From: Rhodothermales bacterium
Lineage (GTDB): Bacteria; Bacteroidota; Rhodothermia; Rhodothermales; Bin80
Assembly (NCBI GenBank): GCA_965215475.1
Contig: OZ244061.1
Span: 3,112,307-3,176,306 of the forward strand
DNA: 64,000 bases
Direction of reading: 5' to 3'
Shown here: in pieces, positions 18,592-64,000 of the stretch
Layout: each line of letters begins with the position of its first letter
Position numbering within the stretch: position 1 is the first letter of the stretch
Translations under genes and position numbers: made by a program
The notes under the pieces: generated by a model
Databases searched by the model: none
Told to the model about the DNA's origin: nothing
The model's input: only the letters and a program-made list of their open reading frames with translations

Positions 18592-18597
18592 TGATTG

Positions 18598-18613: not shown

Positions 18614-18856
18614 TATATTCAACGATACGGGGTATGCGTAGCCTAAAGCGACAACATCACCGGAGGAGTGCCAACGAATATGCATTCTTCCGTAGGATGA
18701 GGGCATAAAGACAGCCGTGCTCCCCAGAACCTGAGAATCAACCAGGGGGGACTTGAAAATAACTTCGGCCAGTAGTAATCACTACTACTATGCGAAGCTA
18801 GGACTCCCTTGCCTGTCAGAAATAATTAGGACAAGGGAAACGGATAAAGCGGATCC

Positions 18857-19069
18857 CTAGATAGGATCAACACTTTGTGCTTGGAACCCTTTGTCTCCCT
18901 GGGTTACGGCAAATTCTACCCGTTGGCCTTCATCCAAGGACTTGTAGCCCTCCTTGTTAACCTCGGAGTAGTGAACGAACACATCTTTTTCTCCACTATC
19001 ACGCTGAATAAAACCATAGCCTTTCTCAGCGTTGAACCATTTGACTGTGCCTTGTTCTCGATCTTGCAT
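18857..19069 (-). CDS. cold-shock protein (CspA family)
   Basis: [15 protein letters not shown] (RNP1) and DVFVHYS (RNP2). 70 aa. Confidence 0.95.
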
Positions 19070-19247
19070 TTACACGGTGTCTTGCGACGTTTAATAAGTT
19101 GAAACTAAAACTAACGAATGATTGAACGATCCAGTTAGGAGCTCAATCAGTTAAGGGTTATACGCTGTTTGATCAAAAGGATGCAAAAACTTTGTGTGTT
19201 TGATGAAAATAATTTATGAAGAATGGATGATTTTTGCTGCCGTTAAT

Positions 19248-20249
19248 TTAACCCGCTTCCTGCAGGCAAGGTTCGGGAGGGAGTTGGCACTCTGGGATAT
19301 TTGCAGGAGCGAGCGGGCATGGCCCCGCCGTACGGTAACCGATATTACGTTGAAGTTCTAAGGTTGGGATCCAAGCAGTGACGACCGTATATCCTCCTCC
19401 AAAGAATCCATACCCATTGACTACATTCGAAAACGTGCCCGGCTCAATCAATAGATTTGGATCGAAAGATTGATCAGGAGAGGCCCACTGCTCATCTGCC
19501 GCTAAAAATCGAAGGTGAATTCGGCGGAGTGCAATATGATCACGAGACAGACAATTGATTTCAAATTGTTCTTGAACCAGAGCAAAATCCTCACGGAGAT
19601 TTACCTCGAAGCGCCAGCCATCATCCAGAGGTTCTTCTTTTCCGGAATAGGATACCTCCACAGGGAGGCGAACGGCTGGTGGATTGGTGGATCCTGGAGG
19701 CCATGGGTTTGCAGGGGGTAACGTAATGGCGTCATACGTTACTGCTATATCGACCAGGTTTGGTGGTTTTCCTTTTATATGTACGGGAACGATCGAGCGG
19801 GTCCTCTCATCAATGAGCTCTACCTCAACCGGGGGTGGGATGGTTACTTCTGCACTGGATTCTACTCCATCGGAGCGCCGAACAGAAAGGCGGTAACGAT
19901 GTTCATATTGAGCCTCGAATTCTGCCTCAAACAAATACCCGCCAACACTGTCTTTCGCCGTGCCGCCGCAACAGGCTTCGTCAATGTGTACCCATGTATG
20001 TGTCTCACCAGTCGTCAGATTGGTAGAGGTTACCGTGGCATCAATAGGCGCCGAAGGGTCAGCGATCAATTGGTCTCGAATCGGAAATACCCGGACTCGC
20101 TGAATCTTTGCATGGGCATCCATGTAGCCCCATAACGTATATGGTCGGTCTTCGCCGATAATCGGATCAATTGACTGATCGCACCCACTCAAAGCGACTG
20201 CAAGGATCACCAGGAATGCCGTGTAAAGGGAATGAATACGGGGCATCAA
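19248..20249 (-). CDS. DUF4249-like lipoprotein (TBDR partner, second copy)
   Basis: Lipobox ..ALSGC. C-terminal FSNVVNGYGFFGGG. ATGA-type 4-nt overlap with the upstream TBDR. Confidence 0.6.
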   Translation of the reverse strand: MMPRIHSLYTAFLVILAVALSGCDQSIDPIIGEDRPYTLWGYMDAHAKIQRVRVFPIRDQLIADPSAPIDATVTSTNLTTGETHTWVHIDEACCGGTAKDSVGGYLFEAEFEAQYEHRYRLSVRRSDGVESSAEVTIPPPVEVELIDERTRSIVPVHIKGKPPNLVDIAVTYDAITLPPANPWPPGSTNPPAVRLPVEVSYSGKEEPLDDGWRFEVNLREDFALVQEQFEINCLSRDHIALRRIHLRFLAADEQWASPDQSFDPNLLIEPGTFSNVVNGYGFFGGGYTVVTAWIPTLELQRNIGYRTAGPCPLAPANIPECQLPPEPCLQEAG

Positions 20250-42130: not shown

Positions 42131-42354
42131 ATTCTATGCTTCTTAATAAGCTTGTTAAAATACTGAGAATGTGAACATTGCCAGCAAAATCATTCCACAA
42201 AACTTAATGGTACTATTGCGAATGTTGTGGATCAATCTCGGTCTATTGACGCGTTTTGGGAAGCACTTGCGGGTCCATGCAAAGCGAGCATCCCCTTCTC
42301 CTGCTTCCTACATCATCTCCGGCAAGCGATCCGTGTCTCGGTCCGCCCTTCTGG

Positions 42355-43032
42355 TCACCTCATTCTCATCAAGTGTCCGACCTGCATGGATGCGTGTCCT
42401 TCCATGGAGGTGGCTACCATGCGATACAGATAGACGCCGGCCGGGAGGGCAACCTGCTCCAATGTGATCACCTGCTCTCTGCCCGCCGCCATGCGCACCA
42501 TTGGATGGGTATACACCCGCCTGCCCGTCAGATCCAGGACGTCCAGTTTGATTTCGGCCGGCCACGGCAGATCAAAGAGCAGATTCGTAGACGTATGGAA
42601 GGGATTGGGATAGTTGGCATGCACGATCAGCTCCTGGGGATACTCCTTCTGCTCTTCGGTCGCCACCGGCGAGACCACTTCCAGGGTAAAGGTTAAGCTG
42701 GCTTGGGCCCCCTTGGCATCCGTTGCCTTGTAGGTCAGCTCCACCGGGGGTGTGATCTGCACGGGCGTGCCCGCGATCGTGCGCGTGGACGCATCAAACC
42801 TCAGTCCACTCGGAAGAGACAAGAGGTTGAGCGTATACTGAACCGGGTCGGTGCCCCCGGTCACCTCCGGCAAGACCAGTGGATCAATCCCTTGTCCACG
42901 ATCATAGGATTGATTCATGACCGTGGTGACAAACGTGATCTCGTAGATCTCCAGCGTAAATTCCATTGTGGAGATGGCCCCCGGGGCATCGGTCACCGTC
43001 CAGATAAAGGGTTGTGATCCCATAATATTCAC
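42355..43032 (-). pseudogene. 5'-truncated T9SS cargo fragment (two cadherin-like Ig repeats plus T9SS CTD)
   Basis: No signal peptide. DPLVLPEVTGGTDPVQYTL..STRTIAGTP and YPNPFHTSTNLLFDL..LDVLDLTGRRVY parallel the C-terminus of the S8 peptidase at 839-4105. It abuts an IS remnant. Confidence 0.6.
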
Positions 43033-43079
43033 GACGATTGAGTTTTGAAGTTATTTTCAGCACATTGGAGTTTTTTCTG

Positions 43080-44160
43080 AAAGCCTGGTTTAACGCCCTA
43101 AGCCTACCTTGTATGACCATCGCAAGGAGCGTCAGTGGCGCCATCTGGATCTGTTTACTTGGAGGTGTTTTATTCACGGCCGGGTTCCCCGCGTACAAAC
43201 CCCTAAGGATCCGAAGACGATCCGCTGAACGCAACCAAGAACCAAACCAAAGCGTCGGGAATTCTTCGGTGCGGAATGAACCAAGTCCATCGCAGTATGC
43301 ACCGTGCGGTGAAGCGCGGAGAGGCCCGCAGATCTCTGACAAACGTTCGTCCTATCCGTATGGATGAAAAGGCCCTCAAGCGCGGACATCGGCACGCAAC
43401 GGTGGGGAGTGATTCGGATCTTGGAATCGTTCTTGATGTTGGATAAGGGCGCACCAAAAAAGGCACGATCGACCTGTTGGAGGGCATTTTAGAGCGGATC
43501 GGGGATCAGGTATCGATCGATATGTGGCTGGCGTTCATTGGAGCGGTACAAGAAGTCTTCCCCGAGGCCCTCTTGATTCACGATCGGTTTCATTTAATCC
43601 AGTATCTCCATCAAGCCATCCATCAAGCACGAAGGCGAGAGGTCAAAGATCATCCAGAACTCAAAGGGAGCCAGTACGCCCTGTTGAAGAATGAAAAAAA
43701 TCGCACGCAAAAACAAGAAGAAATCTTCCAGGTGATCCAAGAAGCGAACCTCCATGTGAGTGTTGCTTGGCGATTCCGAGAAGACTTCAAAGCCATCTTT
43801 GAATGCACATCGTTCCAGGAAGCGAAAGAGTATCTCAACTTATGGCTTGACGAGGTGCAAGAGACGAGGATTCAGGAAGTCATCAACATTGCAGATCTGT
43901 TTAAGAACCACTTTGATGGAGTTTGCAACGCACTATGGAACCGACCGTCCAATGCAAAAGCAGAACGGATGAACGGAAATATTCAAGAAATCAAAACCAT
44001 TGGGAGAGGATACAGAAGATTTGAAAACTTCCGCGTTGCGATTCCAATGCGGAGGTTTAGACCTGCACCCACACAATTCGTGACAGAACCATCTGAGATA
44101 TTCGTGATTGAAATTAGAGTTTATCCGGTCTTGGGGTATTTGATTGGCCAAAAATAGAAG
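43080..44160 (+). mobile_element. decayed ISL3-family transposase remnant (5'-truncated, internal deletion, stop codon and frameshift)
   Basis: Hand translation gives ..YDHRKERQWRHLDLF.., ..GMNQVHRSMHRAVKRG..IRMDEKALKRGHRHAT..VLDVG*GRTKK.., then the ORF 43477-44157 with DRFHLIQYL. The C-terminus ..QCGGLDLHPHNS* is readable only after a frameshift. Confidence 0.7.
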
Positions 44161-44240: not shown

Positions 44241-44654
44241 ATGCGTAAGCCTCGTACCATCATCAGTATGATTGCCCTTGTGGGATTTGCCTCTCTGCTT
44301 CTGCTCAACTTCGGAGAACAGGTTGGTGGTTATATGCATTTTTCCGAAGCTGAAGCCTCAGGATCTCGTGCTCATGTGGTTGGTTACTGGACACAACCCG
44401 AGACGGCTCATTATGACTCTGAGACCAATGTCTTTTCATTCCACATGAAAGATGAAGAGGGAAGCGTTCGCAAAGTACACTATCATGATATAAAACCTGC
44501 AAGCTTTGAAAATGCAGAAAAGCTGGTCGTGGAAGGCCGTCTAAATGGAGAAATTTTTGAGGCCGAACATATCCTCATGAAATGCCCCTCGAAATATAGC
44601 GAAACGAACACTCTCCATCAGATTCCTCTCTCTTTGGAAGACCTCCAAAATTAA
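44241..44654 (+). CDS. CcmE-like heme chaperone, CxxxY variant, without neighbouring ccm genes
   Basis: N-terminal membrane anchor plus OB-fold pattern (..VHYHDIKPASFENAEKLVVEGRL.GEIFEAEHILMKCPSKY). The CPSKY motif replaces the HxxxY heme-binding motif. Confidence 0.65.
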   Translation: MRKPRTIISMIALVGFASLLLLNFGEQVGGYMHFSEAEASGSRAHVVGYWTQPETAHYDSETNVFSFHMKDEEGSVRKVHYHDIKPASFENAEKLVVEGRLNGEIFEAEHILMKCPSKYSETNTLHQIPLSLEDLQN

Positions 44655-44850: not shown

Positions 44851-44858
44851 TATATTTG
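44851..44858 (+). promoter_or_regulatory. TAnnTTTG (tatatttg) Bacteroidetes-type -7 promoter element upstream of the cluster
   Basis: An exact match to the consensus is seen in the sequence. No clear -33 TTTG was found. Confidence 0.25.
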
Positions 44859-45431
44859 CATTCGGTTAGACATTCTATATTGCTATCACCATTACTTATG
44901 AGAAGTTGCTCTCCATTATTATTGTCTAGAATGGCTTCCTCGGAATCAACCTGCAATTTAGAGGATTCAGAGATACGTTTACGAAAATCCCCCCCCCCTT
45001 TTTTTCGTAGCTCCCTAGTCCTATTTTTGATCCTTTTTGGAACTGGTTGTCAGGGAGTTACTGATTATTGTGACCTTGGAAAGCAAGATTTTTGGCTTGA
45101 ATCACTCTCGGATTGGCTAAATCTTGCCATACAATCCGGTGTCATCGGTTTTCTGATAACATTGATTGTTAGCTTGTTCTTGTACAGAGCACAACTTCAA
45201 AAAGTAAGGGAATGGGATGTTACCGCATCCTCACATCCTCGATTTCTGCCCCTTTGGGTGATCCCGGCTTTATTGATTGCCATTGCGCTTATGCCTGCAA
45301 TCCTATTCCTCCCCCTGGATTGCTCAATAAGGTTGGCACACATAATCGGTGCATGGGCAGGTTCGTTTATCGGTTGGGGAATCGTCTACACCTACTACTC
45401 TATCAGTGTCAAAAAAATACTTAAAAATTAA
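44856..45431 (+). CDS. polytopic membrane protein, first gene of the cluster (start probably ATG 44898 or 44931)
   Basis: Lipobox-like LILFGTGC followed by three hydrophobic helices. The stop lies 2 nt before the next gene. Confidence 0.5.
   Translation: MHSVRHSILLSPLLMRSCSPLLLSRMASSESTCNLEDSEIRLRKSPPPFFRSSLVLFLILFGTGCQGVTDYCDLGKQDFWLESLSDWLNLAIQSGVIGFLITLIVSLFLYRAQLQKVREWDVTASSHPRFLPLWVIPALLIAIALMPAILFLPLDCSIRLAHIIGAWAGSFIGWGIVYTYYSISVKKILKN
44989..45005 (+). repeat. C10 T7 homopolymer tract inside the coding frame (encodes SPPPFF)
   Basis: Counted directly: C at 44989-44998, T at 44999-45005. Confidence 0.9.
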
Positions 45432-45433
45432 TT

Positions 45434-48166
45434 ATGCCGAATTATTTTGTTGCGTGTGGTGGAACAGGGGCTCATGTAATGTTGGCCATGGTGCGTTTAC
45501 ATCTACTGGGATACCCTTTTGGGTTTTTCACCCCAAAAGACGGAAAAAATTTCCCTGATCTTTTTCTGATTGATCAAGATAGTGGATCACTTGTAACCGG
45601 CAAGGACAAGAACACTGCAATGGGGGAAATAAACCGCCTTCTTCGCATTCACCCCGGTCGATACGATCCACAAGTTGCATTTGGTGTTGGTCGCAAGTTG
45701 AAAATATCTCGTGTATCACCATTACCCATTGATGATGGAACATGGTTTGCCTCCCCTAACAACATACTGAAGAACAGATTTTCAGCATCAGACATTCTTG
45801 ATCTGATAACTACTGATCGCCAGCAAGATATTGATTATTCTGGCGGCATGATGGCATCCCCTGCCGTGGGATCCCTTCTTTTTCGCCTCAAAGACGATGA
45901 CAGACCCAATCCTGGGGCACCGAATAATGATAAAAATTATAACACATTACTGACTGATTCTGCAGGAAACCCTGTTGTCGTCTGCGGCTCAATTGTAGGA
46001 GGCACTGGTGCATCTGTTACCCCCACTCTTGCGCGTCAATTAAAAGATGGTCAGGCATCTGAGGTAATGGCAGTTTTGGTTCACAGGTGGTTTAACCTTG
46101 ATGCAGATCAAGGCGGAAAAAATTTTGATGACGCCGTCCGTAGAAATAAGGATATGGAAGACAATGCTGCCAGTGGACTTGTCTCTTCTGCTGAGGAACT
46201 GGCTAATCATTTACCTACAGTTTTAGTAGGAGCGACTAACAAAGGGATGAAAGATCGAAAATATGGTGGTGACTATCTAATGCCTATTGAAGATTCCTAC
46301 ATTCATGCTGTTGCAGCACTCGCTGGCATGACCCATTTACTCGGTGCACACCAGCCCAATGGGCTATATGGAGTATCCGCTTCTGTGGATCACGAGTTGA
46401 GTAATGATATTAAGATTGAAAATTCCACACTAGGCAATTTAATTGATCATGCTGAATTATTTTTAAGATTTTTGGACGCCTATTGCAAGGTCCTATCAAA
46501 CTTCAACGATTCATCCAATGCTGACATTATAGAGAAGTTTTTGAAAAAAACCAGTACTGGTTTCAGTGATCCTCCGCGACACAAGATACATGAATGGATC
46601 TATAACGAAGTTGGAAAGTCTGCCAAAAAGGTGGATTCGGTGTTCAATCAACTAAAAGAGTTCAAGGTTGCCTACGCCGAGTCTCTGGACTGGCTCAGAA
46701 GCCTAACTTCCCCTAGACCCATCCTTTCCCCCAAAGATGATATAGGATCAATCACTTTTCTTAATGAACGCTTAAAAGTAAAGCCACTGGATGGGTCTGC
46801 AGGAACTCGAACTCCTCCTATACCTATGGACAGGGAGGAATATATTGCTCTATCTCTGTATCACTGGCTTGCAGAATGGACTAAGGATTACTACGAGAAA
46901 AAATACAAGAATTTGTTTCCATCTCAAGGTAGTGTTAAAAAAGGATACTGGCCATCTATTGATGAGCCTACACTTCTTCCCGCTTTTAGCAATGCAGGCA
47001 CACTAGCAGGCCTTCATGGTGCAGGTAATATCGGGGCCGCGCTAAAAGCTATGTATGATCCTTCGAAAATTTCTCAAAATGGATGGCCACATTGCTTTGC
47101 TGCTAGTAAGCAATTCAAATTTTTAGTTAAGACTGGAGACAAAGTAGCGATTCGAAAACTTGAAATGTTGCTTGTAGGTCATGCACTTGGTTACCTGAAG
47201 CTGGAGCCTGTTAAATTTCTTGACAAAAACAAAAGGATCCCAGCATCTATTGATACCCTGCTTGAAGAAAAAGGAAATGGTTTGGCGAAATATCGGCTTC
47301 GTGACAAAAAAAACGATATTGTTTATGGATTTAGTTCACCAGACACATTACTATGCCCCACACCAAGAACTGATGATCCAAGAACTGATGATCCAAGAAC
47401 TAATGATGAATTGGCAAAATTATGGGACAAAATCACAGATTATACTGATCCTAATGCGGACTATAAAACATCACAAAAATGGGGGTATTTTGGAAACAAG
47501 GCTCGCAGCAGTGTTGCATTTTGGATTCAGCAGTTGACTAAATATTACCCCAACGAGCCTACATTAGATTGGGTCAAGCCTCTCAAAAATAATCCTCAGG
47601 ACGGACAACCATATGGAATTGTAGAATGGCTTCCATTGTCTGACAACGGGAACAATGAGATTAAACTCCCCTTGCCCCATGTTAAAAATACGCTCCGCCC
47701 TTCTCAAGATATAATTGGCGGGATACAATCTTTTGATGCCCATACACAGGATAAAAAAATACAGACCCGAATTCCAAGCTTCAATAAATGGAATAATTTT
47801 TCCCGCATAAAAGAAATATTTTTGCCCGGTTTAAAAAACCCGATTAGCTTGATCTGGAAAGAGCATCTGGATGGGTTACAAAAAAAGGGGGAGATTTTTG
47901 CATGGGGAAGCGATAAAAAAGATCATATTTGGGTCATGACGGATCTGGAATCAGATCTGATTGAAATCACGAACCTGCGTGTCATAGATATTGAGAAAAT
48001 TCGTATTCCCACTTGTATTCCGCTTAAGCAAAACCCTGTTCCTGGATCTAATACCAAAAAGGGTAGCATAATATTTCCCGATTTGCCCCTCCTTCCAGAA
48101 TATACAAGTTTAGCGATGGTACCTCCTGGCAATAAAAGAAGCGGGAAAAGCAATGATCAATCATAA
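45434..48166 (+). CDS. 910-aa protein with N-terminal tubulin/FtsZ-superfamily-like GTPase loops and a large uncharacterised C-terminal region
   Basis: FVACGGTGAHV (T1-like GxGxxG, aa 5-15), SGGMMASPAVGSLLF (T3-like, aa 136-150) and CGSIVGGTGASVTP (T4-like GGGTGSG, aa 184-197; nt 45998-46015). Confidence 0.5.
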   Translation: MPNYFVACGGTGAHVMLAMVRLHLLGYPFGFFTPKDGKNFPDLFLIDQDSGSLVTGKDKNTAMGEINRLLRIHPGRYDPQVAFGVGRKLKISRVSPLPIDDGTWFASPNNILKNRFSASDILDLITTDRQQDIDYSGGMMASPAVGSLLFRLKDDDRPNPGAPNNDKNYNTLLTDSAGNPVVVCGSIVGGTGASVTPTLARQLKDGQASEVMAVLVHRWFNLDADQGGKNFDDAVRRNKDMEDNAASGLVSSAEELANHLPTVLVGATNKGMKDRKYGGDYLMPIEDSYIHAVAALAGMTHLLGAHQPNGLYGVSASVDHELSNDIKIENSTLGNLIDHAELFLRFLDAYCKVLSNFNDSSNADIIEKFLKKTSTGFSDPPRHKIHEWIYNEVGKSAKKVDSVFNQLKEFKVAYAESLDWLRSLTSPRPILSPKDDIGSITFLNERLKVKPLDGSAGTRTPPIPMDREEYIALSLYHWLAEWTKDYYEKKYKNLFPSQGSVKKGYWPSIDEPTLLPAFSNAGTLAGLHGAGNIGAALKAMYDPSKISQNGWPHCFAASKQFKFLVKTGDKVAIRKLEMLLVGHALGYLKLEPVKFLDKNKRIPASIDTLLEEKGNGLAKYRLRDKKNDIVYGFSSPDTLLCPTPRTDDPRTDDPRTNDELAKLWDKITDYTDPNADYKTSQKWGYFGNKARSSVAFWIQQLTKYYPNEPTLDWVKPLKNNPQDGQPYGIVEWLPLSDNGNNEIKLPLPHVKNTLRPSQDIIGGIQSFDAHTQDKKIQTRIPSFNKWNNFSRIKEIFLPGLKNPISLIWKEHLDGLQKKGEIFAWGSDKKDHIWVMTDLESDLIEITNLRVIDIEKIRIPTCIPLKQNPVPGSNTKKGSIIFPDLPLLPEYTSLAMVPPGNKRSGKSNDQS
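47363..47407 (+). repeat. 3 x 15-bp in-frame tandem repeat (ccaagaactgatgat x2, ccaagaactaatgat) encoding PRTDD-PRTDD-PRTND
   Basis: Read directly from the sequence. Confidence 0.95.
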
Positions 48167-50351
48167 TTGGAATGGTTTATCAGACTATAAATGGGATAAC
48201 AATACTACGGTAGAATGGGACGTGTATTTAATGGGCCGCCCTCAATCAAAGCCTGAAAAGATCAAAGTAACAATTGATAAGAATATCAATCCCGAAGCAG
48301 CTCATTGGATGATTTGGCCAAATTTCAAGTCTCCCAAAAATGACCCGACGCCATGGAGAGCCTATTACGTATATGAAGATTCATCACGACCATCCCTGCA
48401 AGCTCATGTCTTGACCCAAAAGAATGATGGAAGTATTTCTAGACCCAAAACACGCCCCGATGGCATTTCTGGTCCCAGTCGCTCTGTGGAATGTAAAAAT
48501 GGAAAACACACCGGCGGTGCTCCAGTGGCCTTGTGTGCTTATGATACTGATCTTGAAAAATATGTCGGCCTTTATAAAATAGAAATAGTGAATGAGTTTG
48601 ACGACCATGACAATCCAACTCCTTGGAAGCTTGCCTTGGATTTTGGAACTTCACATACGGTAATGGCCCAAGAAGGTCTCAATAATGGAAATGCTGAAAT
48701 AATTTCCCTCAGTAGTGAATTAACTCCTGAGAGCCCAGAGATGTCTTTGCATATCAGTCAGAATTGGCCTGAGCAAAGAGATGTGGAGCGTAAAAAATCT
48801 TTGGAGGTATGGAGACCAACTTATGTAGAGAAGAAGAATTTGAACCCAAGCGCATCCCAAATGCTGCGTTCCGATCTTTGGTCGTCGAAGAAGAAGGAAT
48901 TCGGCACATCCAACAATATGCCGGAAGGATTGGGAGCCCATGACCCATTATGCACTTCCTTCCTGGAATTTACACCGTGAATCTTTAGGTGATGTTATAT
49001 CTGGCTTTAAATGGGAAATGAATGATGCACAGTTTGCAGGGCATGAGCGATGGCTCCAAAAGAGATATCTTGCAATGGTCATTGAACTATTCTTGGCCGA
49101 AGTGATCATGGAAAAACGAGCGTTTCCGCACAAAGTCCAGTTTACATTCACGTATCCCTTACGAGGCAACAAGGATAACTACGAAGAACATGATTAAAGA
49201 AGGTGCTTCCGGAATGTGCAAAAAATCTTGGTTTCGATTTCAATCCAGACGGAAACAATTTATCTTTACTTAGTGAATCCCATGCTGCGGCTGGAATCGT
49301 AGGTACAGGGAATCCTTGTGAAGTAAAACTTGTAGCCGACCTAGGCGGGGGAACCCTTGACATCTTTATTTCCACGTCAGACACGTCAGATAGAGAAGAT
49401 AGTGATAGTAGATTCAAGACAATAGCCGATAGTGCTAAAATTGGGGCGAATCATCTACTCAAAATTCTCGCGAAGTATGGATCTAAATATCTTCCAAACG
49501 ATTCTGCATGGAGGGACAGCTATGAAGAAGCTTATATCAACTTATGTGTGTGGATGCGTTTGAAAGGATCTCGTCAATTATTCGATCCTAGTGGAATAAA
49601 TTCAGAGATTCCTCCACTAAAACTTAATGGCTTCCAAGATGGACCATCTGGGAGCAAGGCAAGAATTCTCATCAGTAAGTATTTCTACCTAATTACTGAT
49701 TTTTTAGCTCGAAATCTTGTCGCGTATGTGACGAAACATGTTCTTAAAGAGTTAACAGATCAAGAGCTTAAGCATGATCTAAAACTATTTCTACAACTCC
49801 AGGGTAACGGATGGCGTTTATGGTATCAGAGTGACGATTACAATCAAATTCATCAGCAAATACTTAAACTTATCAAAGAACGAGCTAACCTCTTATGGAA
49901 CGAGCGATCTCTGGATAGTCATGATTTTTCTATTCAAGAAGATTTATGGGATGATGAAAACAGAAATTTAGGCCCTGACCCTAAGACTGGCCCGATTTGT
50001 AACGCTGTAGGTAAAGGCTCTCTAACAGACGGTACAACAAACTATCACAAATTCCCCTTATCCAAAGTAAAGATTTTTCATCCTGAAGAGGAAACAATCG
50101 AAAGAAATTGGTTTGATCTTCTACCATTTGAGAAGTTGCCACAGAAGTCAACTCCTAGAATCAAAGAATTTGATCCAGGATTATGGTTAGGCCGTACATC
50201 AAAAGAAATCAGTGCGATTGAGGCTCAACGTATGGCTAAAATTAATGCTGAAATAGAAAGTCCAACTTGGGGTATAAATACGATGGATGCACCTATTGGG
50301 GCGGCTATTTGGGAGCAGATGCTTAAATCGGCATATTTGAGGATGGATTGA
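48153..50351 (+). pseudogene. Hsp70/actin-fold (ASKHA) ATPase with a ~155-aa N-terminal extension, split over three ORFs by two frameshifts
   Basis: LALDFGTSHTV (phosphate-1, nt 48639-) in ORF 48153-48980. VQFTFTYPL (the 'vitvPa' strand) in ORF 48940-49197. LSESHAAAG and ADLGGGTLDIFIS (phosphate-2, nt 49338-) in ORF 49203-50351. Frames run 0 to 1 to 0. Confidence 0.6.
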
Positions 50352-50606
50352 AACATCCATTGAAGCTTTCAAGGAATGATTATGATTGATCTGATGGTTG
50401 ATGTCTCTGGCACTCCTCACAAATCAAATCATAACTGATGCTCTCTCTGATTGCTACCAACCCAATAAACAACCTGCATGATGGTGATGATCCATATTCC
50501 ATTGCGCGCTCAATTTCACCCTGATCTGTTCGTTGTATGACACGAGCCTTGAATTCTACCATTTTATTTCTGATGCTCAAGGTTTAAGTTGACCACTATC
50601 TGTGAT

Positions 50607-51011
50607 ATGAAGCTGAGGACGAAATTCTTGAAATTGATGGAAGTAGCACGAACTACTCTGCAGGGGGAATGGGCCAAAAAAGGGCTTGAATTATTGGTTC
50701 GTGTAGTTCTCGTTGCAACTCGTCGGACCGATGGAAATCCAGCATCATTAGATCTACTCATTCTTCGTGATTTGAAAAAGATCCTTGAGGATTTTCCCAG
50801 TATGCCTTGCCCACCAGCAGGATCGCCTACTCTCTTTCCACGAGAAGATTCAAAAACTAAACTCCTTATTTCCCCTAGATGGATACTCCGATCACTATAC
50901 AAGATTCGTATTCAATTAGGTGGACCAGTTCCAACGCATATCAGAGTTTTACGTGATGCTCTGGAATCACTGCAATGCATCTATGTAACCTCACAAAATG
51001 AAGCGAAATGA
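50607..51011 (+). CDS. hypothetical 134-aa protein (ATG at 50607)
   Basis: ATGA overlap with the downstream gene (51008-51011). No motif recognised. Confidence 0.4.
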   Translation: MKLRTKFLKLMEVARTTLQGEWAKKGLELLVRVVLVATRRTDGNPASLDLLILRDLKKILEDFPSMPCPPAGSPTLFPREDSKTKLLISPRWILRSLYKIRIQLGGPVPTHIRVLRDALESLQCIYVTSQNEAK

Positions 51012-52420
51012 TACTCATGCACAGATACAGATTCGTTTATTTAATCCTAATACTTGCGATTGTTATCTCACAACCTAGCAATGGGCAGTCAAATGATCGA
51101 CCTGTCGAAAGTTATGCTCAAGAGGTTGCCGTTCAATCTGTTTGGGAGAATGACTTTTATGGTCAAATAGCACCATTGGAATCTCAGGATTTTTATCTGC
51201 TTTGGGATGTGTCGATCCCTATGGGCGGGTATATCCACGAAAGTAATCGTAGCCTTTCCGTTGCACTTGCCAAGATACAGGAGTTGTTAAAAAATGGAAT
51301 TTTGAATTCTGACTATGGAAGAACAACTATTCAATGTATGGGAATCAAAGACACCATTGATCCTTTGGAGAAATGCGATGACAATCAACTTAGAGACAGG
51401 GATTTTTTTCTTGGATTAGATTCTGACGTTGGGCTGGGTATTGAGCTTATGATTGACAGTCTTAAGACCGGAAAAATGATGGGGGCAGTTCTCATCACTG
51501 ATTTGATGGCAACTACCGAATATGGCACTGGCGCAACAGCATTATTACCGTATTTTAATGACGAGGAGCTTATGGCATATTTTACAGATGGTAAAATATA
51601 CATGGGGATCTTGGGGATTGCTCCCGATTATTGGGGACTCAAAAAAGGACCTTGTGCGACAAAATCAGGGCCATTGGGATGTTGGTTCAATGAAGGACTC
51701 CAAGAGTGGGTACCTCTCAACCAAACGGTGAAGAGACCGATATATGTTCTCGTTATGGGGCGTCATTTGGAGGGAGAGGATAAACATTCTAATTCCGTGA
51801 ATACGATTATTGAGGAGATATACGAATCTTTGCGTGATTTGGGTTATGAAGTAAAATTGGAACGCGTGACGCAAGGGGCGTTAGGCCTTCAGACTCAATT
51901 AAAATGGCACAATCCTTCCACAGAAGGCAGAGGACGCCCACCCATCAATCTTGACTCAGACAATGGATTTTCTTGTAATAATAGAAATGTCCACACGTTA
52001 TCCAGCGAATTTGACGATCGTCAAATTCGTGTTGATGAGATAGATGATACGGGCATAATTAATGGTCTTGAAACATTTGACCAAGTACGAAAAGAGGATG
52101 AACATGGAATAAAATTGGATCTTAACTGCGAGAATGTATTGAATTTGATCCGAAAAGAGAGACGTTGTAGAGGAGATGAAGATCCTGATAGACCTTGCAA
52201 CTGCACGATTGACTCTGTATTTAAACCAGATCTGAGCAGGATCACTGCCAAAGTCAGCTATCAATCCGAGAATGGAATGGGTTGGGGCAAATGGTCATCT
52301 ATACAACATAGTGATAGTTTGACACTTTATTTAGCAGATTTTATTGATGGATTGCACCCTGACCATTATAACGCAATGATTTCCCCTGCTCCTCCTCTTG
52401 ATTGTAGCAAAGCGAGGTAA
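51008..52420 (+). CDS. secreted or periplasmic Cys-rich protein, possible degenerate vWA fold
   Basis: Signal peptide MHRYRFVYLILILAIVISQPSNGQS. FYLLWDVSIPMGG (DxSxP in place of the MIDAS DxSxS) and AVLITDLMAT (in place of the vvllTDG strand). Eight Cys in the mature part. Confidence 0.45.
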   Translation: MILMHRYRFVYLILILAIVISQPSNGQSNDRPVESYAQEVAVQSVWENDFYGQIAPLESQDFYLLWDVSIPMGGYIHESNRSLSVALAKIQELLKNGILNSDYGRTTIQCMGIKDTIDPLEKCDDNQLRDRDFFLGLDSDVGLGIELMIDSLKTGKMMGAVLITDLMATTEYGTGATALLPYFNDEELMAYFTDGKIYMGILGIAPDYWGLKKGPCATKSGPLGCWFNEGLQEWVPLNQTVKRPIYVLVMGRHLEGEDKHSNSVNTIIEEIYESLRDLGYEVKLERVTQGALGLQTQLKWHNPSTEGRGRPPINLDSDNGFSCNNRNVHTLSSEFDDRQIRVDEIDDTGIINGLETFDQVRKEDEHGIKLDLNCENVLNLIRKERRCRGDEDPDRPCNCTIDSVFKPDLSRITAKVSYQSENGMGWGKWSSIQHSDSLTLYLADFIDGLHPDHYNAMISPAPPLDCSKAR

Positions 52421-52438
52421 TGATTTTTTCGAAACCTC

Positions 52439-53962
52439 TTGCAAAACCCTCTTCATTATGTGTTACTTGTGTTATGTATTGCTGTCCTAGTCTTACTACT
52501 TCTTCGTTATATGTTACTTGTGTTATGTATTGCTGTCCTGGTCTTGGTAATCATATGTCAATATCTAAACTTTAATAAATCAAAAACATCTTTAACTGAT
52601 ATAGATGATTTATTAAAGAAGCTTTTAGAGCGCTCCGACTGGAAGGGGAATTGGGAAATACTAGATCGTCTCGTTGTCCCTCATTTAGATGATATTCAAA
52701 GATTCTCCAATGCCGCATTAGTTACTGGTATAGGTGGCACGATGGGGATATTCTTCCTTGAAGCCTTGTATTTAATACCCAGTGATGTATCCAATTTAGA
52801 CATTACCATCATTGTTCAAGGTGCAATCCCAGCTCTACTTTCTAGTTTGTGCGGAATATTTTTTCATCTCTTCATCCTATCAAAACATTTATCAGAGGCT
52901 CAAGAAAGCGTAACTGACGTGGAGATGAGATGGTTAGAGTCGGAAAATGTGCCATTGCGTGATGGACCAATCGTGAATGTTGACATCAGCGGTGCTGTTG
53001 AAAAAATTTTCCAAGAAATTTCAGCTACTCAGAAAGGTGTATCGGACTCTACGCAAGAAATTAGCAGGCTTCTACAAGAAAACAAAGAGATTTCTCTGAT
53101 TCAGCGATCCTCTGCCAAAGAGATAAAAGAAGGTGTTCAAATCTTTGCAGAACATCTTAAATCTCTCCCCGATGATCTTCGAAAATCACTAGATTTGACT
53201 GAGATTCAACGTTTATTAAAGGAGCAGCAATCAGATGTGCTTGCAATTTTATCTGATGTTAAAGGAGCGACTTCACAAATCGTTAATGCTCAGGATCAAT
53301 TCACAGATGTAGGGACTGAGTTACTGGAGTCGATTAAACAAAATTTGATAAACCATCAAACATCGACCCAGAAAATTTGTGACAATGTTCAAACGCTTAC
53401 CGAGACAATAGAAACTCTTCCCGGCGATATTCGAAGCTCACTGGAAATAAGTGAATTCTTTGATAAAGCTGCAAGAAGCCATCTTGACGAATTGTATAAG
53501 GCTTTTAAAGATCATCAATCTGAATTAAAAAGAGCAATTATTGATAATCAAGAGCAACAGAAACGATGGTTAGCTAATAACATTCACAAAGTTGTTGCAG
53601 ATGTTATTGATGATTTACAGAAACAAATTAATGAAACTATTAAAGATCCGCTTGACACGATGAGCAAAAAACTCAGTGCTGCTACGAAAGAAATGCCAGA
53701 TGCTGCAAATAAGTTCGGGACGGACCTCATTGAATCTGCGAATACACTCGCCACGATTCCAAAAGAACTTGAAAAGGTGTCAGAAGGTGTCAATGAAGTG
53801 GTTCGTGCAACTGCGGACGCTGCCTTGAAGCCTCTATCTGACGAAATGAAAGATTTTGTAGGCACTATTCAGGATACTCATCAGAGACTTGAAAAAACTA
53901 TTCATGGACTAGTACACCTGATTGAAAATCTGATTAGAGGAATGGAAATTAGAAGTAAATGA
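52439..53962 (+). CDS. MotA/ExbB/TolQ-like membrane protein with ~340-aa coiled-coil tail (ZorA-like architecture); start may be ATG 52511
   Basis: TM1, then ALVTGIGGTMGIFFLEAL (compare LGLLGTVxGI) and IIVQGAIPALLSSLCGIFFHLFIL. After that comes a long heptad-rich, Q/E/K/L-rich tail to the C-terminus. Confidence 0.55.
   Translation: MQNPLHYVLLVLCIAVLVLLLLRYMLLVLCIAVLVLVIICQYLNFNKSKTSLTDIDDLLKKLLERSDWKGNWEILDRLVVPHLDDIQRFSNAALVTGIGGTMGIFFLEALYLIPSDVSNLDITIIVQGAIPALLSSLCGIFFHLFILSKHLSEAQESVTDVEMRWLESENVPLRDGPIVNVDISGAVEKIFQEISATQKGVSDSTQEISRLLQENKEISLIQRSSAKEIKEGVQIFAEHLKSLPDDLRKSLDLTEIQRLLKEQQSDVLAILSDVKGATSQIVNAQDQFTDVGTELLESIKQNLINHQTSTQKICDNVQTLTETIETLPGDIRSSLEISEFFDKAARSHLDELYKAFKDHQSELKRAIIDNQEQQKRWLANNIHKVVADVIDDLQKQINETIKDPLDTMSKKLSAATKEMPDAANKFGTDLIESANTLATIPKELEKVSEGVNEVVRATADAALKPLSDEMKDFVGTIQDTHQRLEKTIHGLVHLIENLIRGMEIRSK
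52457..52546 (+). repeat. ~39-bp direct repeat at 51-bp offset (52457-52495 / 52508-52546, 2 mismatches) duplicating YV/MLLVLCIAVLVL
   Basis: Aligned by hand. Confidence 0.85.
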
Positions 53963-54729
53963 AAAGACGCTCTGAGACACAGGTTACCGTATGGCCTGCA
54001 ATTACGGATTTGATGATTGCGATTGTCGTCATTGCAGTTTTAGCGGGGATCATTGGATATAGTAAATATACTGAGATAAAATTAACGGCAGGTCCCTCTA
54101 AAATTCGTAATGATATACTGGAGGAGATTGACAGTTTACTGAAGAATTCGAATCTGAGCGTTGAAGTACTTAAAGATGAAAGCGTTTTACGTCTATCTGA
54201 CGGTATCGTTAACTTTGAACTCGGAGAAATTTCGCCCATTGAAGATCACAAGAAAAATGTGGCGATATTGGCTGAGGTGTTAGCTCAGGTGGTTCCGTGT
54301 TACATTTCATGCCCATCTCAAACGATCACACATGTGTCCACTGACAGCCATAGCAGAGATAAATCCTATTGTCAAACAATCTCCTGTAACGAAACCAGCA
54401 ACTCACAGTGGCTCATTGGGACAGTACTCATTGAAGGACATACGGACACTATCCGTGTAATAGAAGGGAGAAATCGATTCAAGGATAATCTTGAGTTATC
54501 CTCAATGCGGGCTGCCGAAGTCTATCGGATGATTACTGCTTGGGAACCCTCAATCGGAGAAATGAAGAATTCACAAGAGGTTCCTATCTTCAGTACAAGT
54601 GGTTATGGCTCGATGCGGCTTGCAGAACCAGATATGCCCTCCAGTGACCAGAATAGACGAATTGACTTACGATTTCTTTTTGAACGACGCCAAGAAAGAA
54701 ATCCAACAGAGGAATCAAGTTTGCCATGA
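53959..54729 (+). CDS. MotB/OmpA-like peptidoglycan-anchored stator subunit (ZorB-like)
   Basis: N-terminal TM with conserved Asp (VWPAITDLMIAIVVI, compare MotB YADFMTAMM). C-terminal OmpA_C blocks IEGHTDT..NLELSSMRAAEV..GYGS..NRRIDLRF. ATGA overlap with the upstream gene. Confidence 0.8.
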   Translation: MKRRSETQVTVWPAITDLMIAIVVIAVLAGIIGYSKYTEIKLTAGPSKIRNDILEEIDSLLKNSNLSVEVLKDESVLRLSDGIVNFELGEISPIEDHKKNVAILAEVLAQVVPCYISCPSQTITHVSTDSHSRDKSYCQTISCNETSNSQWLIGTVLIEGHTDTIRVIEGRNRFKDNLELSSMRAAEVYRMITAWEPSIGEMKNSQEVPIFSTSGYGSMRLAEPDMPSSDQNRRIDLRFLFERRQERNPTEESSLP

Positions 54730-60691: not shown

Positions 60692-61312
60692 CTACTGTGG
60701 AGGCTGAAATGCATCCTGATCAAGTAAGAGTTCTGCAATTAAAGCTTCTAATCTTGCAAGGCCCTGGCCTGCATCAGCCGTTTTGAGAGCCTCGTAATAT
60801 TCTGGATGTCCTTTTAAGCGTTCCGGAAAAATTGGTATCCCATCCATCCAATATCCGGCATGGGCACATATCACAAAGTAAGATGCTGCCCTAGCTGTCC
60901 TGCCATTTCCATTTATAAATGGATGGATCCAGTTGATCCTCCAAAGAACATAAGCGGCCAATGAGACCGGAGTAAACTCTGTCCACCAGCGATTGACTCG
61001 ATTAACCATGTCATCCATGAGCGAGGGAATCCTGAAATACATTGGTGGTTCATAATCGCCTATGGTCACGTCACAGGGTCTGTACTGTCCTGCATATGCG
61101 TGTAAACAGCTAATTGCACGAAAGTTGAGGGCTTTGATGACGGTTTGCGACAAAAAAGGGGTTGCTGATTGAATTGCTGCTTCCACCAAGTTTTTAAGAA
61201 AGTCAAGCTGCCGTTCTCGGTTGGTTACATCCAGTTTCTGATAGACAGGATGGGTTTCAGATCCGTCAACTAATTCATGAATGATCATGGGTAACGCCAT
61301 AACGACGGTCAT
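60692..61312 (-). CDS. Fic-domain protein, intact copy
   Basis: HPFINGNGRTARAA (the HxFx[D/E]GNGRxxR motif with N at the acidic position). 206 aa. Confidence 0.8.
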   Translation of the reverse strand: MTVVMALPMIIHELVDGSETHPVYQKLDVTNRERQLDFLKNLVEAAIQSATPFLSQTVIKALNFRAISCLHAYAGQYRPCDVTIGDYEPPMYFRIPSLMDDMVNRVNRWWTEFTPVSLAAYVLWRINWIHPFINGNGRTARAASYFVICAHAGYWMDGIPIFPERLKGHPEYYEALKTADAGQGLARLEALIAELLLDQDAFQPPQ

Positions 61313-61496
61313 ACCAAGCGGATAACCACTCTCTATCTTCTTCGGTCTTTACATCTGCAAGTGCGTATGATTTTGCTTGTGCTCGATGATCCTCTGGGGT
61401 CATATTGCGCCCAGCTTCGGCCATTCTTTCAAGTGCGGCCGCAACCTTTTTGGCGAGTTCACAATTTGGGTCCATGAATTCAGGGTTTATCAAAGA
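61275..61496 (-). CDS. small upstream partner ORF (antitoxin-like), copy 2
   Basis: Same N-terminus as copy 1. Overlaps the Fic start. Confidence 0.4.
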   Translation of the reverse strand, partial: SLINPEFMDPNCELAKKVAAALERMAEAGRNMTPEDHRAQAKSYALADVKTEEDREWLSAWYDRRYGVTHDHS

Positions 61497-61670
61497 CATG
61501 ATCAGTATTGGGTTGTTTTTGTTATAGTACAAGGAATGTACAAATTGGTTGTCGAGGTGTTCATGTACATCATTATTTTTCGGATGCTTACGAATCAATA
61601 TGACTGGAATAGGTCATGATCCGGTTAATTCTGATATTGGAGTTGCCTTTGGGGCTAATTCTCAACTGAT

Positions 61671-64000
61671 TCAATGTTGGAAGATCTCTCCTCCAATTGT
61701 ATCGACGGTTGATGCACTATCGTTTGAACGGATGTGTTTGGAGTTCTTGGACTCAGCTTCGGTGCGGGCGTGATTCTCAGCGAGTAGCCGCTTTAGTAGT
61801 TCAACGCGGGCTTCAGGGCTGATCGTGTATCGGATCCGGTCGTTTTCGGGGAGTGTCTCGACTTCATAAAAATCGTGTTGAAGGTCAAGGTCCTGCCAGC
61901 CGTACGCATCGCGAACCGCAAGATCAAGTGCAACATGCAGGCGGCGCAGTTCAATAACCGCCTCGAGACCTGAAGTTGCGGTATCCATATCTTTCTTGGA
62001 CTCCTCCGCAATCATTTCGGGAGATAGGTCACGGGTATGGAACAGGTTATATATTTTTGTCAGCCCTAGCCAAAGGGACGACATGAGATTTTTACGATAC
62101 GTATGATAGGACTCGCCGATCTCTGCGAGGCCTGTGTCAGGCGTTTGCCATAGCCCTATAGGGAGAGTGAAGGTGTTAAAGCAGTTGGTAGGAGTATAAC
62201 GTAGATCTTGCTTTAATGAGCCACTATATTTGCGAGCCCATATCTCATGAAGAGTAGATTGCACGACGCTGAAAAGATCCCAGCGATCGGTGGTAAAAAT
62301 ATAGAGTGCATCGCTGAAGACATAATTTGTCGGCATCGCCGAAAAGTTCAGGTACTTTGTAGTACGAGAGGCGACAAAGCACCTAGGAAGCCCCCTGATA
62401 TTACTATAGAGGTTCTTTCTAATGGATGCATATTGCCACCACCGATTCCGGTTATCTTGGTTGATGGATGTCTTGTCATGTAGTGCCAACCGAACGGGTT
62501 TTACGAGTGATGAGACAATTGAAAAAGGTTCGGAGTATTTTCTGGCTTGTTCTTCGGTCATGTTGAAAAAATCAATCGTGCTTCTTCCCGGTGCTTGACT
62601 CGGTTCATTGTTTAATTCTTGGCCGTTGATAATCTGTCTAATCACATCTTTGCATGCAGAATTTTGCCGGATCAACTCATCTGCTTTTCCATGTGTAAGT
62701 AGAAATCCATTTCCACGAAAAGTTGAACCTTGATACATTTTCCGGAGATTCTCTACGACCTTGTGTGGCTTTTTTTGGACTACTCCTTCTTCAAAAAATG
62801 GATTGATCTGTTCGACCGGTTGATTGTCGAGGAGTTTTAGGCCCTCCCATTTTCCCTTATGAACAGCAAGAAGAGAGACTACGAGATTGGCAACCCCAGA
62901 CCATTTCATTCCACGGGTGGCCATGTTGATCTCTCCTCCAACGGAGACGATTTGCTCTAATCCATCCCTACGAATTTTGCCGTCGATGATTGAATTGGTA
63001 GTGATGATAGCCAAAAAGCCATCATCCCGGAGTAACTCATAAATACGCCGGAGAAAATATACCACCAAGTCACTAAGCCCAGCGGGCGCGTATTGCCATT
63101 TAACATACCCACAAAAGGCATAACCATAGGTTCCACTAAGCGCCTGCCCACCCAAGTAAGGTGGATTCCCGAGAATGCAGTCGAACCCGCCACGCTTTAT
63201 TATTTCGGGAAATTCCACAAACCAGTGAAAGAAACGTTTATTTTCAGCGATGAATCTCGCATGTTCAGCTCCTTCTCCCTCTGGTATTAACTTGCTCCGC
63301 GAATAACTACGAAACTCGCTATCCGTAATGATTTTCCTCTCGTTGCGAGGGATTTTTTGAGTATAGAACTGTGCAATGGGAATACCTGCAACAGCTCGTA
63401 AAAAGTTCATGTTCTGTCCTTGGTCTAAAGCAGCAAAACGTTCTTTCTTCTGATCCACCTGGGCTGAAGTATGCTCTGGAAGGCTCGAAATCTGTGTTGA
63501 TTCATTTCGGACTGTGCCAAGGCGGTCGGAGAGCTCAGGAGAGGAGTCGATCGATAGTTGCCCTTGGCGTTTCCGCTCATCCTTGTTTTTATTTCGATAG
63601 ATACTGGCGAAAGTCTTGTCATCGCCAGACAGGGACTTGAATGCTTCCATTGGTATGCCCTGAGCGAGTTCTTCATGACGTGCAAAACCGACGATGGCGT
63701 TGCCACACTTGACATGATGATCCAGGAAGTTGAGGGGCTGGCCTGGAATATGTGCCTCAAGCCATAGAGCCACCTTGCATAGCTCTACTGCGAGAGGATT
63801 CAAGTCAACGCCATAAATGCAGTTTTGGATCGTGTCACGCAGAGCGGTTCGGTAGGGCGCGGGCGATGGTTGCTCTTCACCGGTACGCACCACAGCTAAC
63901 GTATTGGCGATCCGGCGGGCGGCCGCGAGAAGAATGTGTCCCGAGCCACAGGCAATATCGGCTACCCTCAGAGCAAGGAGTGCTGTCTCAGGATCGTCTG
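61671..64000 (-). CDS. large N6-adenine DNA methyltransferase (type IIG/IIL- or BREX PglX-like), 5' end beyond the window
   Basis: Motif I DIACGSGHIL (hand-translated, 63950-63980), HVKCGNAIVG, and motif IV ILGNPPYLGG. The frame stays open to nt 64000. Confidence 0.8.
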   Translation of the reverse strand, partial: DDPETALLALRVADIACGSGHILLAAARRIANTLAVVRTGEEQPSPAPYRTALRDTIQNCIYGVDLNPLAVELCKVALWLEAHIPGQPLNFLDHHVKCGNAIVGFARHEELAQGIPMEAFKSLSGDDKTFASIYRNKNKDERKRQGQLSIDSSPELSDRLGTVRNESTQISSLPEHTSAQVDQKKERFAALDQGQNMNFLRAVAGIPIAQFYTQKIPRNERKIITDSEFRSYSRSKLIPEGEGAEHARFIAENKRFFHWFVEFPEIIKRGGFDCILGNPPYLGGQALSGTYGYAFCGYVKWQYAPAGLSDLVVYFLRRIYELLRDDGFLAIITTNSIIDGKIRRDGLEQIVSVGGEINMATRGMKWSGVANLVVSLLAVHKGKWEGLKLLDNQPVEQINPFFEEGVVQKKPHKVVENLRKMYQGSTFRGNGFLLTHGKADELIRQNSACKDVIRQIINGQELNNEPSQAPGRSTIDFFNMTEEQARKYSEPFSIVSSLVKPVRLALHDKTSINQDNRNRWWQYASIRKNLYSNIRGLPRCFVASRTTKYLNFSAMPTNYVFSDALYIFTTDRWDLFSVVQSTLHEIWARKYSGSLKQDLRYTPTNCFNTFTLPIGLWQTPDTGLAEIGESYHTYRKNLMSSLWLGLTKIYNLFHTRDLSPEMIAEESKKDMDTATSGLEAVIELRRLHVALDLAVRDAYGWQDLDLQHDFYEVETLPENDRIRYTISPEARVELLKRLLAENHARTEAESKNSKHIRSNDSASTVDTIGGEIFQH

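Follow-up and report, generated by a model that had tools for sequence, protein, structure and literature searches.

The 64,000-nucleotide (nt) stretch of the genome of a Rhodothermales bacterium that was analysed here (contig OZ244061.1, positions 3,112,307 to 3,176,306 of the forward strand; hereafter the window, in whose numbering coordinates are given) contains an AT-rich gene cluster at 44856-54729. The original prediction, made from the letters of the window alone, described it as seven genes joining a tubulin-like GTPase and an Hsp70/actin-fold ATPase to a stator resembling that of the Zorya anti-phage systems. Here, structure models, profile searches and related loci were used to follow up this description. 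As a result, we report that the six-gene cluster is real and conserved and has not been named before. It comprises a ZorB-type channel subunit, an A subunit with a long tail, an exported protein and a cytoplasmic giant protein with apparently intact GTP- and ATP-binding motifs, which are inherited together. The interpretation that we favour, with slightly better than even credence, is that the window carries a decayed copy of a conserved, horizontally mobile, envelope-spanning system of six genes, whose Zorya-like stator signals to the giant nucleoside triphosphatase (NTPase).

All open reading frames (ORFs) of the cluster are co-directional on the plus strand. The cluster opens with the gene for a small, polytopic membrane protein of 177 amino acids (aa), from the ATG at 44898 to 45431, the mechanical ORF start being a TTG at 44856. 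It is followed by the N-terminal 910 aa of the giant protein (45434-48166), comprising a tubulin/FtsZ GTPase domain and additional sequence and assigned by structure model, Foldseek and motifs, and by the C-terminal Hsp70/actin-like (ASKHA) part (48153-50351), which lies in three frames and was assigned by tblastn, motifs and Foldseek comparison of a homologue. Downstream are the genes for a small soluble accessory protein of 140 aa (50589-51011, with similarity to relatives beginning at 50607), an exported or periplasmic protein of 470 aa (51008-52420), recognised by its hydrophobic N-terminus and conserved position, a ZorA-like stator A subunit with three transmembrane helices and a tail (52511-53962; mechanical ORF start TTG at 52439), and a ZorB-like stator B subunit (53959-54729), recognised by its match to the PADLOC model ZorB1 and its transmembrane Asp, D17. 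The genes are separated by a 2-nt gap (45432-45433), a 14-nt overlap (48153-48166) and 4-nt ATGA overlaps at 51008 and 53959, and a non-coding gap follows 50351. The GC content of the cluster is 0.385-0.42, compared with 0.46-0.50 in the flanks.

The co-directional tight packing, junctions, gap and AT-richness given in the original prediction were all reproduced by an ORF and GC check, and the motifs that it quoted (CGGTGAH, VGGTGAS, DFGTS, DLGGGTLD and the transmembrane Asp in WPAITDLM) are present in the window products. An Rfam scan of the window gave no matches. Since promoter and terminator sites were no commoner than in shuffled sequence, that scan does not set the operon boundaries of the cluster.

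The giant gene and its two cytoskeletal folds

In the intact orthologous locus of a Rhodothermales metagenome-assembled genome (MAG), designated L008, which shares 72% nucleotide identity with the window across the whole cluster and 47-74% protein identity per gene, the giant gene is a single uninterrupted ORF of 1,619 aa, versus products of 910, 275, 85 and 382 aa in the window. The 910-aa and ASKHA parts are also fused as one ORF of 1,580-1,650 aa in most relatives. The 910-aa product has few homologues, which form 24 clusters in a set of 5.8 billion proteins and are mostly 1,580-1,593 aa long. The ancestral unit therefore consists of six genes, not of the seven originally counted; the ASKHA ATPase stands as a domain but not as a separate ORF, being divided among three frames in the window and part of the fused ORF elsewhere.

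When aligned to intact homologues (P0006, P0003 and L008) by tblastn, the giant gene of the window falls into four frame segments, with frame changes at approximately 48144-48153, 48926-48940 and 49195-49205. The ASKHA part is spread over the frames 48153-48980, 48940-49197 and 49203-50351, so that the DFGTS and DLGGGTLD motifs sit on separate ORF fragments. The 5' end of the ZorA-like gene carries a 51-bp tandem duplication (52457-52507 and 52508-52558, the copies differing at a few bases), which repeats the first transmembrane helix. The ancestral ATG at 52420, which in L008 is ATGA-coupled to the upstream gene, is out of frame in the window, and an in-frame ATG remains at 52511.

The three frame changes and the 5' duplication might instead be assembly or sequencing errors in a copy that is really intact and functional. 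The records of the relatives come from long-read metagenome assemblies, to judge by contig names such as ctg..._1281x_c; the frame-change sites adjoin homopolymers (A4, G3 and C3); homopolymer runs of at least 4 nt number 22 per kb in the giant gene versus 15 per kb in the rest of the window; and the remaining cluster genes are all full length. However, the homopolymers at the sites are short, and the three shifts lie within 1.1 kb, whereas the window outside the giant gene is 88% coding and keeps 21 intact ORFs of at least 300 aa (34.8 kb in total); under uniform placement, all three shifts would fall in the giant gene in a calculated ~0.2% of cases. The 51-bp duplication is atypical of indel errors, the neighbouring ISL3 transposase is likewise fragmentary, and other family members are demonstrably cut by insertion sequence (IS) elements. 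Since three shifts occur in so short a span while the other long ORFs are uninterrupted, genuine decay is more likely than random assembly error. We consider an intact copy improbable, and the window copy is probably pseudogenised and non-functional.

The GTPase domain of the giant protein spans approximately residues 1-350 (nt 45434-46500) and is followed by a helical and alpha/beta region without a recognised fold. An AlphaFold2 model of the 910-aa part, built from an alignment of 22 sequences, had a predicted local distance difference test score (pLDDT) of 81 and a predicted template modelling score of 0.82. In a Foldseek search of this model against PDB, all of the top 50 matches were tubulin, FtsZ or CetZ, the best being CetZ2 (4b45; E=9.6e-4, prob 1.0, template modelling score 0.42 on the target). 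The T1-like loop CGGTGAH, the T3-like loop GMMxSPAVG and the T4 loop VGGTGAS are invariant or nearly so in the family. At the sequence level, Pfam Tubulin gave weak matches at the T4 region in 7 of the 22 family members, the family profile found zero tubulin matches among PDB sequences, and hhalign against E. coli FtsZ (an approximate sequence) placed T4-H4-S5 in register with a probability of 4%. Because the same profile finds Hsp70 only at E~0.1 and tubulin not at all, a comparison of folds was required. A short peptide repeat, PRTDDPRTDDPRTND, at ~47360-47410 (residues ~643-659 of the 910-aa ORF) falls in a low-confidence loop of the model (pLDDT <50 at residues 651-655) and looks like a small in-frame tandem expansion.

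The affiliation of this domain was traced through its distant relatives. With residues 1-356 as the query, an exhaustive profile search retrieved 782 cluster representatives at E<=1e-3, 70 of them at E<=1e-30. The window protein itself has no match to Pfam Tubulin_2, the FtsZl1 model, and one close relative reaches 0.033, while distant representatives of 450-520 aa and 1,500-1,970 aa do match it, P0117 (40.1 bits) and P0148 (32.9 bits) exceeding the gathering score of 27. Membership of the window protein in Tubulin_2 would thus hold through transitive homology only. Since the distant relatives match, the N-terminal domain probably represents a divergent branch of the FtsZl1 family. The structural and motif evidence supports a tubulin/FtsZ fold at the N-terminus, as first proposed from loop motifs, and the reference to FtsZl1 in the original prediction was apt.

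The C-terminal part carries the phosphate-1 motif DFGTSHT and the phosphate-2 motif DLGGGTLD, approximately 235 residues apart and near-invariant in the family. The only matches of the family profile among PDB sequences were Hsp70, DnaK and MreB (E~0.1), on the phosphate-2 motif, which was aligned with DLGGGTFD of Hsp70; hhalign against E. coli DnaK, again an approximate sequence, was in register with a probability of 57%. Because the window copy is frameshifted, the fold was modelled on the homologous 725 residues of P0003, which are 50-59% identical to the window. In Foldseek, Hsp70, DnaK, Hsp110, MreB or Arp structures made up the top 47 PDB matches of this model (lowest E 7.5e-6, prob 1.0). 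The predicted ASKHA fold is borne out by these matches and by the conservation of both phosphate motifs, which together support an Hsp70/MreB-like domain at the C-terminus. The absence of any Pfam HSP70 match in 22 of 22 members indicates that the domain is Hsp70-like in fold only, and a bona fide Hsp70 chaperone was rejected on the same ground.

In distant relatives of 1,500-1,970 aa, DxGTS and DxGGGT occur at the same positions, which implies that the tubulin-ASKHA fusion is older and wider than the operon type described here. Clustered at 50% identity, the Tubulin_2-ASKHA fusion family in its wider sense numbers at least ~100 representatives, and it is without annotation in Pfam architectures, NCBIfam and PADLOC. 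Two distant members are P0109 (1,969 aa) and P0134 (1,956 aa); the former has a C-terminal TerD domain (Pfam E=2e-37), which ties the fusion family to tellurite-resistance or TerD-type stress modules.

Stator subunits and their partner proteins

The B subunit matches PADLOC ZorB1 with E=2.3e-43 over residues 14-248, and the Asp of its WPAxxDLM motif is invariant in 37 of 37 aligned family members. A ZorB-like subunit with an invariant transmembrane Asp is thereby supported, in agreement with the MotB-like protein originally described, and D17 in WPAITDLM is the predicted proton-carrying residue. The OmpA-type peptidoglycan-binding domain that had also been assigned to it holds for part of the family. 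The domain (IEGHTD...NLELSSMRA) is clear only in the Rhodothermales clade of the window and weak in the distant L062 subfamily; on the window protein, Pfam OmpA gives E=2.9e-4, below threshold, and MotB-family NCBIfam matches are confined to the OmpA part. In most other clades, the B subunit keeps the WPAxADLMT helix and has a different periplasmic domain of ~150 aa with a conserved C(R/K)F(W/F)V motif, so that the mode of peptidoglycan binding may vary by clade.

The A subunit has three transmembrane helices with GxxGT and SSLxG motifs, followed by a cytoplasmic helical tail of ~350 aa. Its top PADLOC matches are ZorA models, mainly in the tail (1.8e-7 in the window, 1e-10 to 1e-12 in relatives) and, for L062, in the transmembrane region (9e-9), and the family profile matches the ZorA structures 8qyd, 8qyk, 8vvn and 8vvi. 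A profile restricted to the transmembrane part reached ZorA and MotA chains at E=0.03-0.8, Pfam MotA_ExbB matched 3 of 19 family members, and the NCBIfam ZorA score was 17 bits, compared with a cut-off of 250. The sequence signal is therefore weak for a protein first described as MotA/ZorA-like, while its helices, long tail and context agree with that description; the term 'ZorA-like' is accepted on context and architecture, not on sequence statistics.

The strong ZorB1 match, together with ZorA models as top PADLOC matches of the A subunit, would be expected if the cluster were a canonical Zorya system (type I, II or III) whose effectors are poorly annotated. However, PADLOC found no match to ZorC, ZorD, ZorE, ZorF or ZorG in the other window genes or in the intact L008 giant, the remaining genes carry tubulin and ASKHA folds, and neither window subunit reaches the cut-off of the NCBIfam ZorA or ZorB model. 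A Zorya-like stator, as originally proposed, is supported for the ZorB1-type subunit and, on context and architecture, for its ZorA-like partner; a canonical system was rejected, and we see hardly any chance that the cluster is one.

The first gene and its 178-aa counterpart at the head of the L008 system are 47% identical, and homologues lie immediately upstream of the giant gene in ~30 loci. Its product has two strong and two weaker hydrophobic segments and no Pfam, NCBIfam or PADLOC family match. The 140-aa protein is 47% identical over its full length to the product of a 148-aa gene of L008 (E=9e-33); homologous C-terminal modules occupy the same position in ~35 loci, often within proteins of 270-290 aa, and no Pfam or NCBIfam match was found for the protein.

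The position of the 470-aa protein is kept in ~45 loci. A hydrophobic N-terminal signal or anchor and, in most homologues, a lipobox-like Cys indicate that it is exported, and in most relatives it is a predicted lipoprotein; the homologues also have invariant Cys pairs. The original prediction saw vWA-like strands in this protein, which the searches do not bear out: no vWA domain was found by Pfam (12 members) or by PDB profile search, and hhalign of the 44-sequence family alignment against integrin I-domains gave no vWA signal (prob 0.2%). Its motif is DVSIP, not DxSxS, and the spacing D67xS69 ... S139 ... T164-D165 resembles a metal ion-dependent adhesion site (MIDAS). Distant counterparts have DISGSM (L062) and DGSLSM (L061), and Pfam found neither vWA nor MotA_ExbB in the distant L062 operon. 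A vWA-like nature may be suggested at the level of motifs only. As anticipated in the original prediction, no nuclease, protease or NADase domain was recognised in the cluster by Pfam, PADLOC or NCBIfam.

Distribution and genomic context

When one genome from each of 185,579 species was scanned for the pattern, 52 loci were found, all of them in MAGs, whose hosts are Rhodothermales, Acidobacteriota (Vicinamibacteria, Thermoanaerobaculia and Bryobacterales), Gemmatimonadota (Longimicrobiales) and Latescibacterota. Judging by isolate names, several of these MAGs appear to come from sponges or corals. Among 60 fetched loci, the gene order recurs in ~45, from four phyla, and wherever the flank sufficed it was conserved as membrane protein, tubulin part, ASKHA part, (small protein), ~460-aa protein, ZorA-like and ZorB-like subunits; an exception is the distant P0094 subfamily (L062), whose ZorA-like and ZorB-like genes lie upstream. 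Recurrence on this scale indicates that the cluster is more than chance, and a chance grouping of ORFs was rejected. A conserved neighbourhood, which the original prediction had left to comparison with other genomes, was thus found. In tblastn searches with the 910-aa protein, the collections of sequenced plasmids and phages gave no match.

Several genomes hold more than one copy. Three loci (L011, L012 and L037) occur in genome OZ241874.1, and in L008 the region on the 3' side of the intact system (13772-21386) encodes first a 225-aa protein, the first 87 residues of which resemble the N-terminus of the ZorB-like subunit, and then a second, divergent tandem copy with its membrane protein at ~16537 and its giant gene from 17112. 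A 445-aa paralogue of the 470-aa protein (P0033, 35% identical) is encoded on the same 3.71-Mb contig as the window proteins P0001 and P0025, which indicates a second system in the source genome. Two loci, L005 and L052, are cut by IS elements (intact ISL3 copies). Multiple copies per genome, together with decay, suggest that the cluster is an accessory element.

In the window, genes for PPDK, a topoisomerase, a fragmentary ISL3 transposase and a CcmE-domain protein lie upstream of the cluster, and genes for DUF4159, sulfatase, Fic and MmeI-type restriction-modification proteins lie downstream. The ISL3 remnant (42256-44157) ends ~0.7 kb upstream; its 226-aa ORF (43477-44157) spans only positions 57-240 of DDE_Tnp_ISL3, and the 1.2 kb before this ORF hold only short ORFs in several frames. 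Between the remnant and the cluster, a lone CcmE-domain protein of 137 aa is encoded at 44241-44654 (Pfam E=7e-14), with no further cytochrome c maturation genes near it. On the minus strand, 6-9 kb downstream, are a Fic/DOC gene (60692-61312) and a gene for an MmeI/Eco57I-type type IIG restriction-modification enzyme (61671-63893), and the region 60692-63893 possibly belongs to a small neighbourhood of defence or mobile genes.

The insertion site of L008 is unlike that of the window, being beside ClpB and a GFO/IDH/MocA gene. Among the neighbours in other loci are an integrase, a relaxase, ArdC and GmrSD (L006), NERD, a DEAD helicase and AAA_14/DUF4143 (L001), a DUF4011 helicase (L003), and AIPR, an NTase toxin-antitoxin pair and ISL3 copies (L005). 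When the 105 ORFs flanking 19 of the loci were scanned together, without a background rate for comparison, transposases (three Mutator, IS66 and ISL3) and defence proteins (two PDC-S01, ZacB, GajB, MzaE, ShosA, AbiEi/Eii, a C5 methylase, two HNH proteins and AIPR) were identified among many metabolic genes. Defence and mobile genes in the neighbourhood of the cluster loci are suggestive only.

This context also bears on an alternative in which the cluster is not an immune system but a proton-powered machine for envelope or membrane remodelling, surface motility or envelope maintenance, in line with the membrane-remodelling role proposed for FtsZl1 operons (PMC2875224), or like Tol-Pal and Agl-Glt. 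All components are envelope-associated or cytoskeleton-like, the lack of nuclease, protease and NADase domains fits such a role, many flanking genes are housekeeping genes, and surface functions would count in sponge and coral symbionts. On the other hand, such a machine would sit uneasily with a spread as sporadic as ~52 loci in 185,579 species genomes from four phyla, with a GC content below that of the flanks, with variable insertion sites, with several divergent paralogous copies per genome, with repeated inactivation by IS elements or frameshifts, and with frequent defence and mobile genes nearby; its B subunit, moreover, specifically resembles ZorB1 and not flagellar MotB. Between a defence sentinel and a membrane machine, the context leans towards defence, and we consider the envelope machine, the main rival reading, unlikely, although worth keeping in view.

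Proposed function and relation to known systems

From its components and their context, the system is probably an envelope-triggered defence. By analogy with Zorya, a proton-driven stator, anchored in the peptidoglycan and perhaps assisted by the periplasmic protein, would sense when the envelope is disturbed, for example by phage entry. The tail of the stator would relay the signal to the giant NTPase, which the small membrane protein may tether to the membrane. Nucleotide-dependent self-assembly or remodelling of the giant on site could follow, making it the effector where Zorya I-III use nuclease-type ones. In its most specific form, which we put forward tentatively and with rather less than even confidence, the proposal is an undescribed Zorya-like immunity in which the motor senses phage damage and triggers GTP/ATP-dependent assembly of the chimeric giant, blocking or sealing the site of entry or arresting the cell.

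Several points weigh against the proposed stator-to-giant defence system. We infer its function as a whole, and no toxic effector domain is recognisable in the cluster. Polymerisation of the giant is a conjecture, since the original description of FtsZl1 reports the T6-H7 elements as missing (PMC2875224) and a domain of this type may lack the elements of canonical filaments. The P0003 model of the ASKHA part has a mean pLDDT of 55.7, its N-terminal half being of low confidence and its C-terminal half good. Apolipoproteins score equal to ZorA in the profile search with the A subunit, the tail of which has a composition like that of any long helical protein, and the B subunits of L001, L006, L024 and L027 show no PADLOC ZorB or OmpA signal past the transmembrane segment. 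Many of the 105 flanking ORFs are ordinary metabolic genes, and the frame changes in the window could in principle be assembly errors.

If a ZorAB-type stator is indeed coupled to an NTPase with tubulin and Hsp70 folds, the motor would be a general envelope sensor with interchangeable outputs; for every Zorya type characterised so far, the final effector is believed to be nuclease-like (PMC11890865). Such coupling would also supply a concrete, testable partner and role for the FtsZl1/Tubulin_2 proteins, which have been orphans since 2010. If it acts in immunity, the giant would be the first prokaryotic immune effector with both cytoskeletal folds on one chain. The occurrence of both of these NTPase folds on a single chain is unusual in itself.

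The cluster matches no named system in PADLOC, NCBIfam or the literature searched, as the original prediction expected. The giant, 470-aa, small and membrane proteins are without a model in NCBIfam and PADLOC, and no publication in the searchable library links ZorA/ZorB with tubulin-like or FtsZ-like proteins. Zorya systems, reportedly set out by Doron in 2018, combine ZorAB with ZorC/D, with ZorE or with ZorF/G. Three subtypes have been named, with nuclease-like effectors for those studied (PMC11890865), and perturbation of the envelope is sensed by the stator, whose tail passes the signal on (PMC11946911, PMC11890865). The cluster resembles Zorya in its adjacent, translationally coupled A and B genes, in a B subunit with a MotB-type transmembrane Asp and, in the clade of the window, an OmpA-like peptidoglycan-binding domain, in the small transmembrane core and very long helical cytoplasmic tail of the A subunit, which is a hallmark of Zorya, and in its accessory, mobile genomic context. 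It differs in its partners, namely the tubulin-like/Hsp70-like giant and the ~460-aa exported, small and membrane proteins, with no type-defining effector and no nuclease-like domain; in the B subunit of most other clades of the family, which has no detectable OmpA/ZorB periplasmic domain; and in the transmembrane core of the A subunit, which is only marginally ZorA-like by sequence.

An Asp-bearing transmembrane B subunit and a MotA/ExbB-like A subunit are also common to the 5:2 ion motors (MotAB, ExbBD, TolQR and AglRQS-Glt). In the Agl-Glt motor of Myxococcus, AglRQS is a MotAB-like motor coupled to the actin-like MreB. However, the B subunit of the cluster is nearer to ZorB1 than to MotB models, the long A tail is lacking in those motors, and the cluster locus is sporadic and mobile, whereas the motors are core.

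FtsZl1 operons contain vWA, GTPase, kinase and OmpA-like genes, and FtsZl1 proteins consist of an FtsZ-like domain, a coiled coil and an alpha-helical C-terminal domain (Makarova & Koonin 2010, PMC2875224). The cluster shares with these operons a highly divergent tubulin/FtsZ domain, secreted or membrane and OmpA-like partners, and a patchy phyletic spread. In contrast, the C-terminal partner here is an ASKHA ATPase on the same chain, the P-loop GTPase and protein kinase genes were not found here by Pfam or NCBIfam, vWA is unconfirmed here, and the cluster includes a MotA/ZorA-type partner, while the term 'MotA' occurs nowhere in PMC2875224.

Tubulin, HSP70 and vWA components have also been predicted in GTPase-centric conflict systems, which would work in biological conflict through multimeric assemblies that depend on NTP (Kaur, Burroughs, Iyer & Aravind 2020, PMC7159879). 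Components of the tubulin and HSP70 superfamilies and of the extracellular vWA type, the last unconfirmed here, are common to both. Unlike the present cluster, however, those systems are centred on GAP1-N2/TRAFAC GTPases, whereas no P-loop GTPase was found here by Pfam or NCBIfam; their tubulin and HSP70 themes belong to separate neighbourhood types (Firmicutes and Actinobacteria) and are not fused; and they are without a MotAB/ZorAB stator. The cluster is best filed as one in which the stator module of Zorya is combined with a fusion of FtsZl1-type and ASKHA domains; computational precedents exist for the pieces of this architecture.

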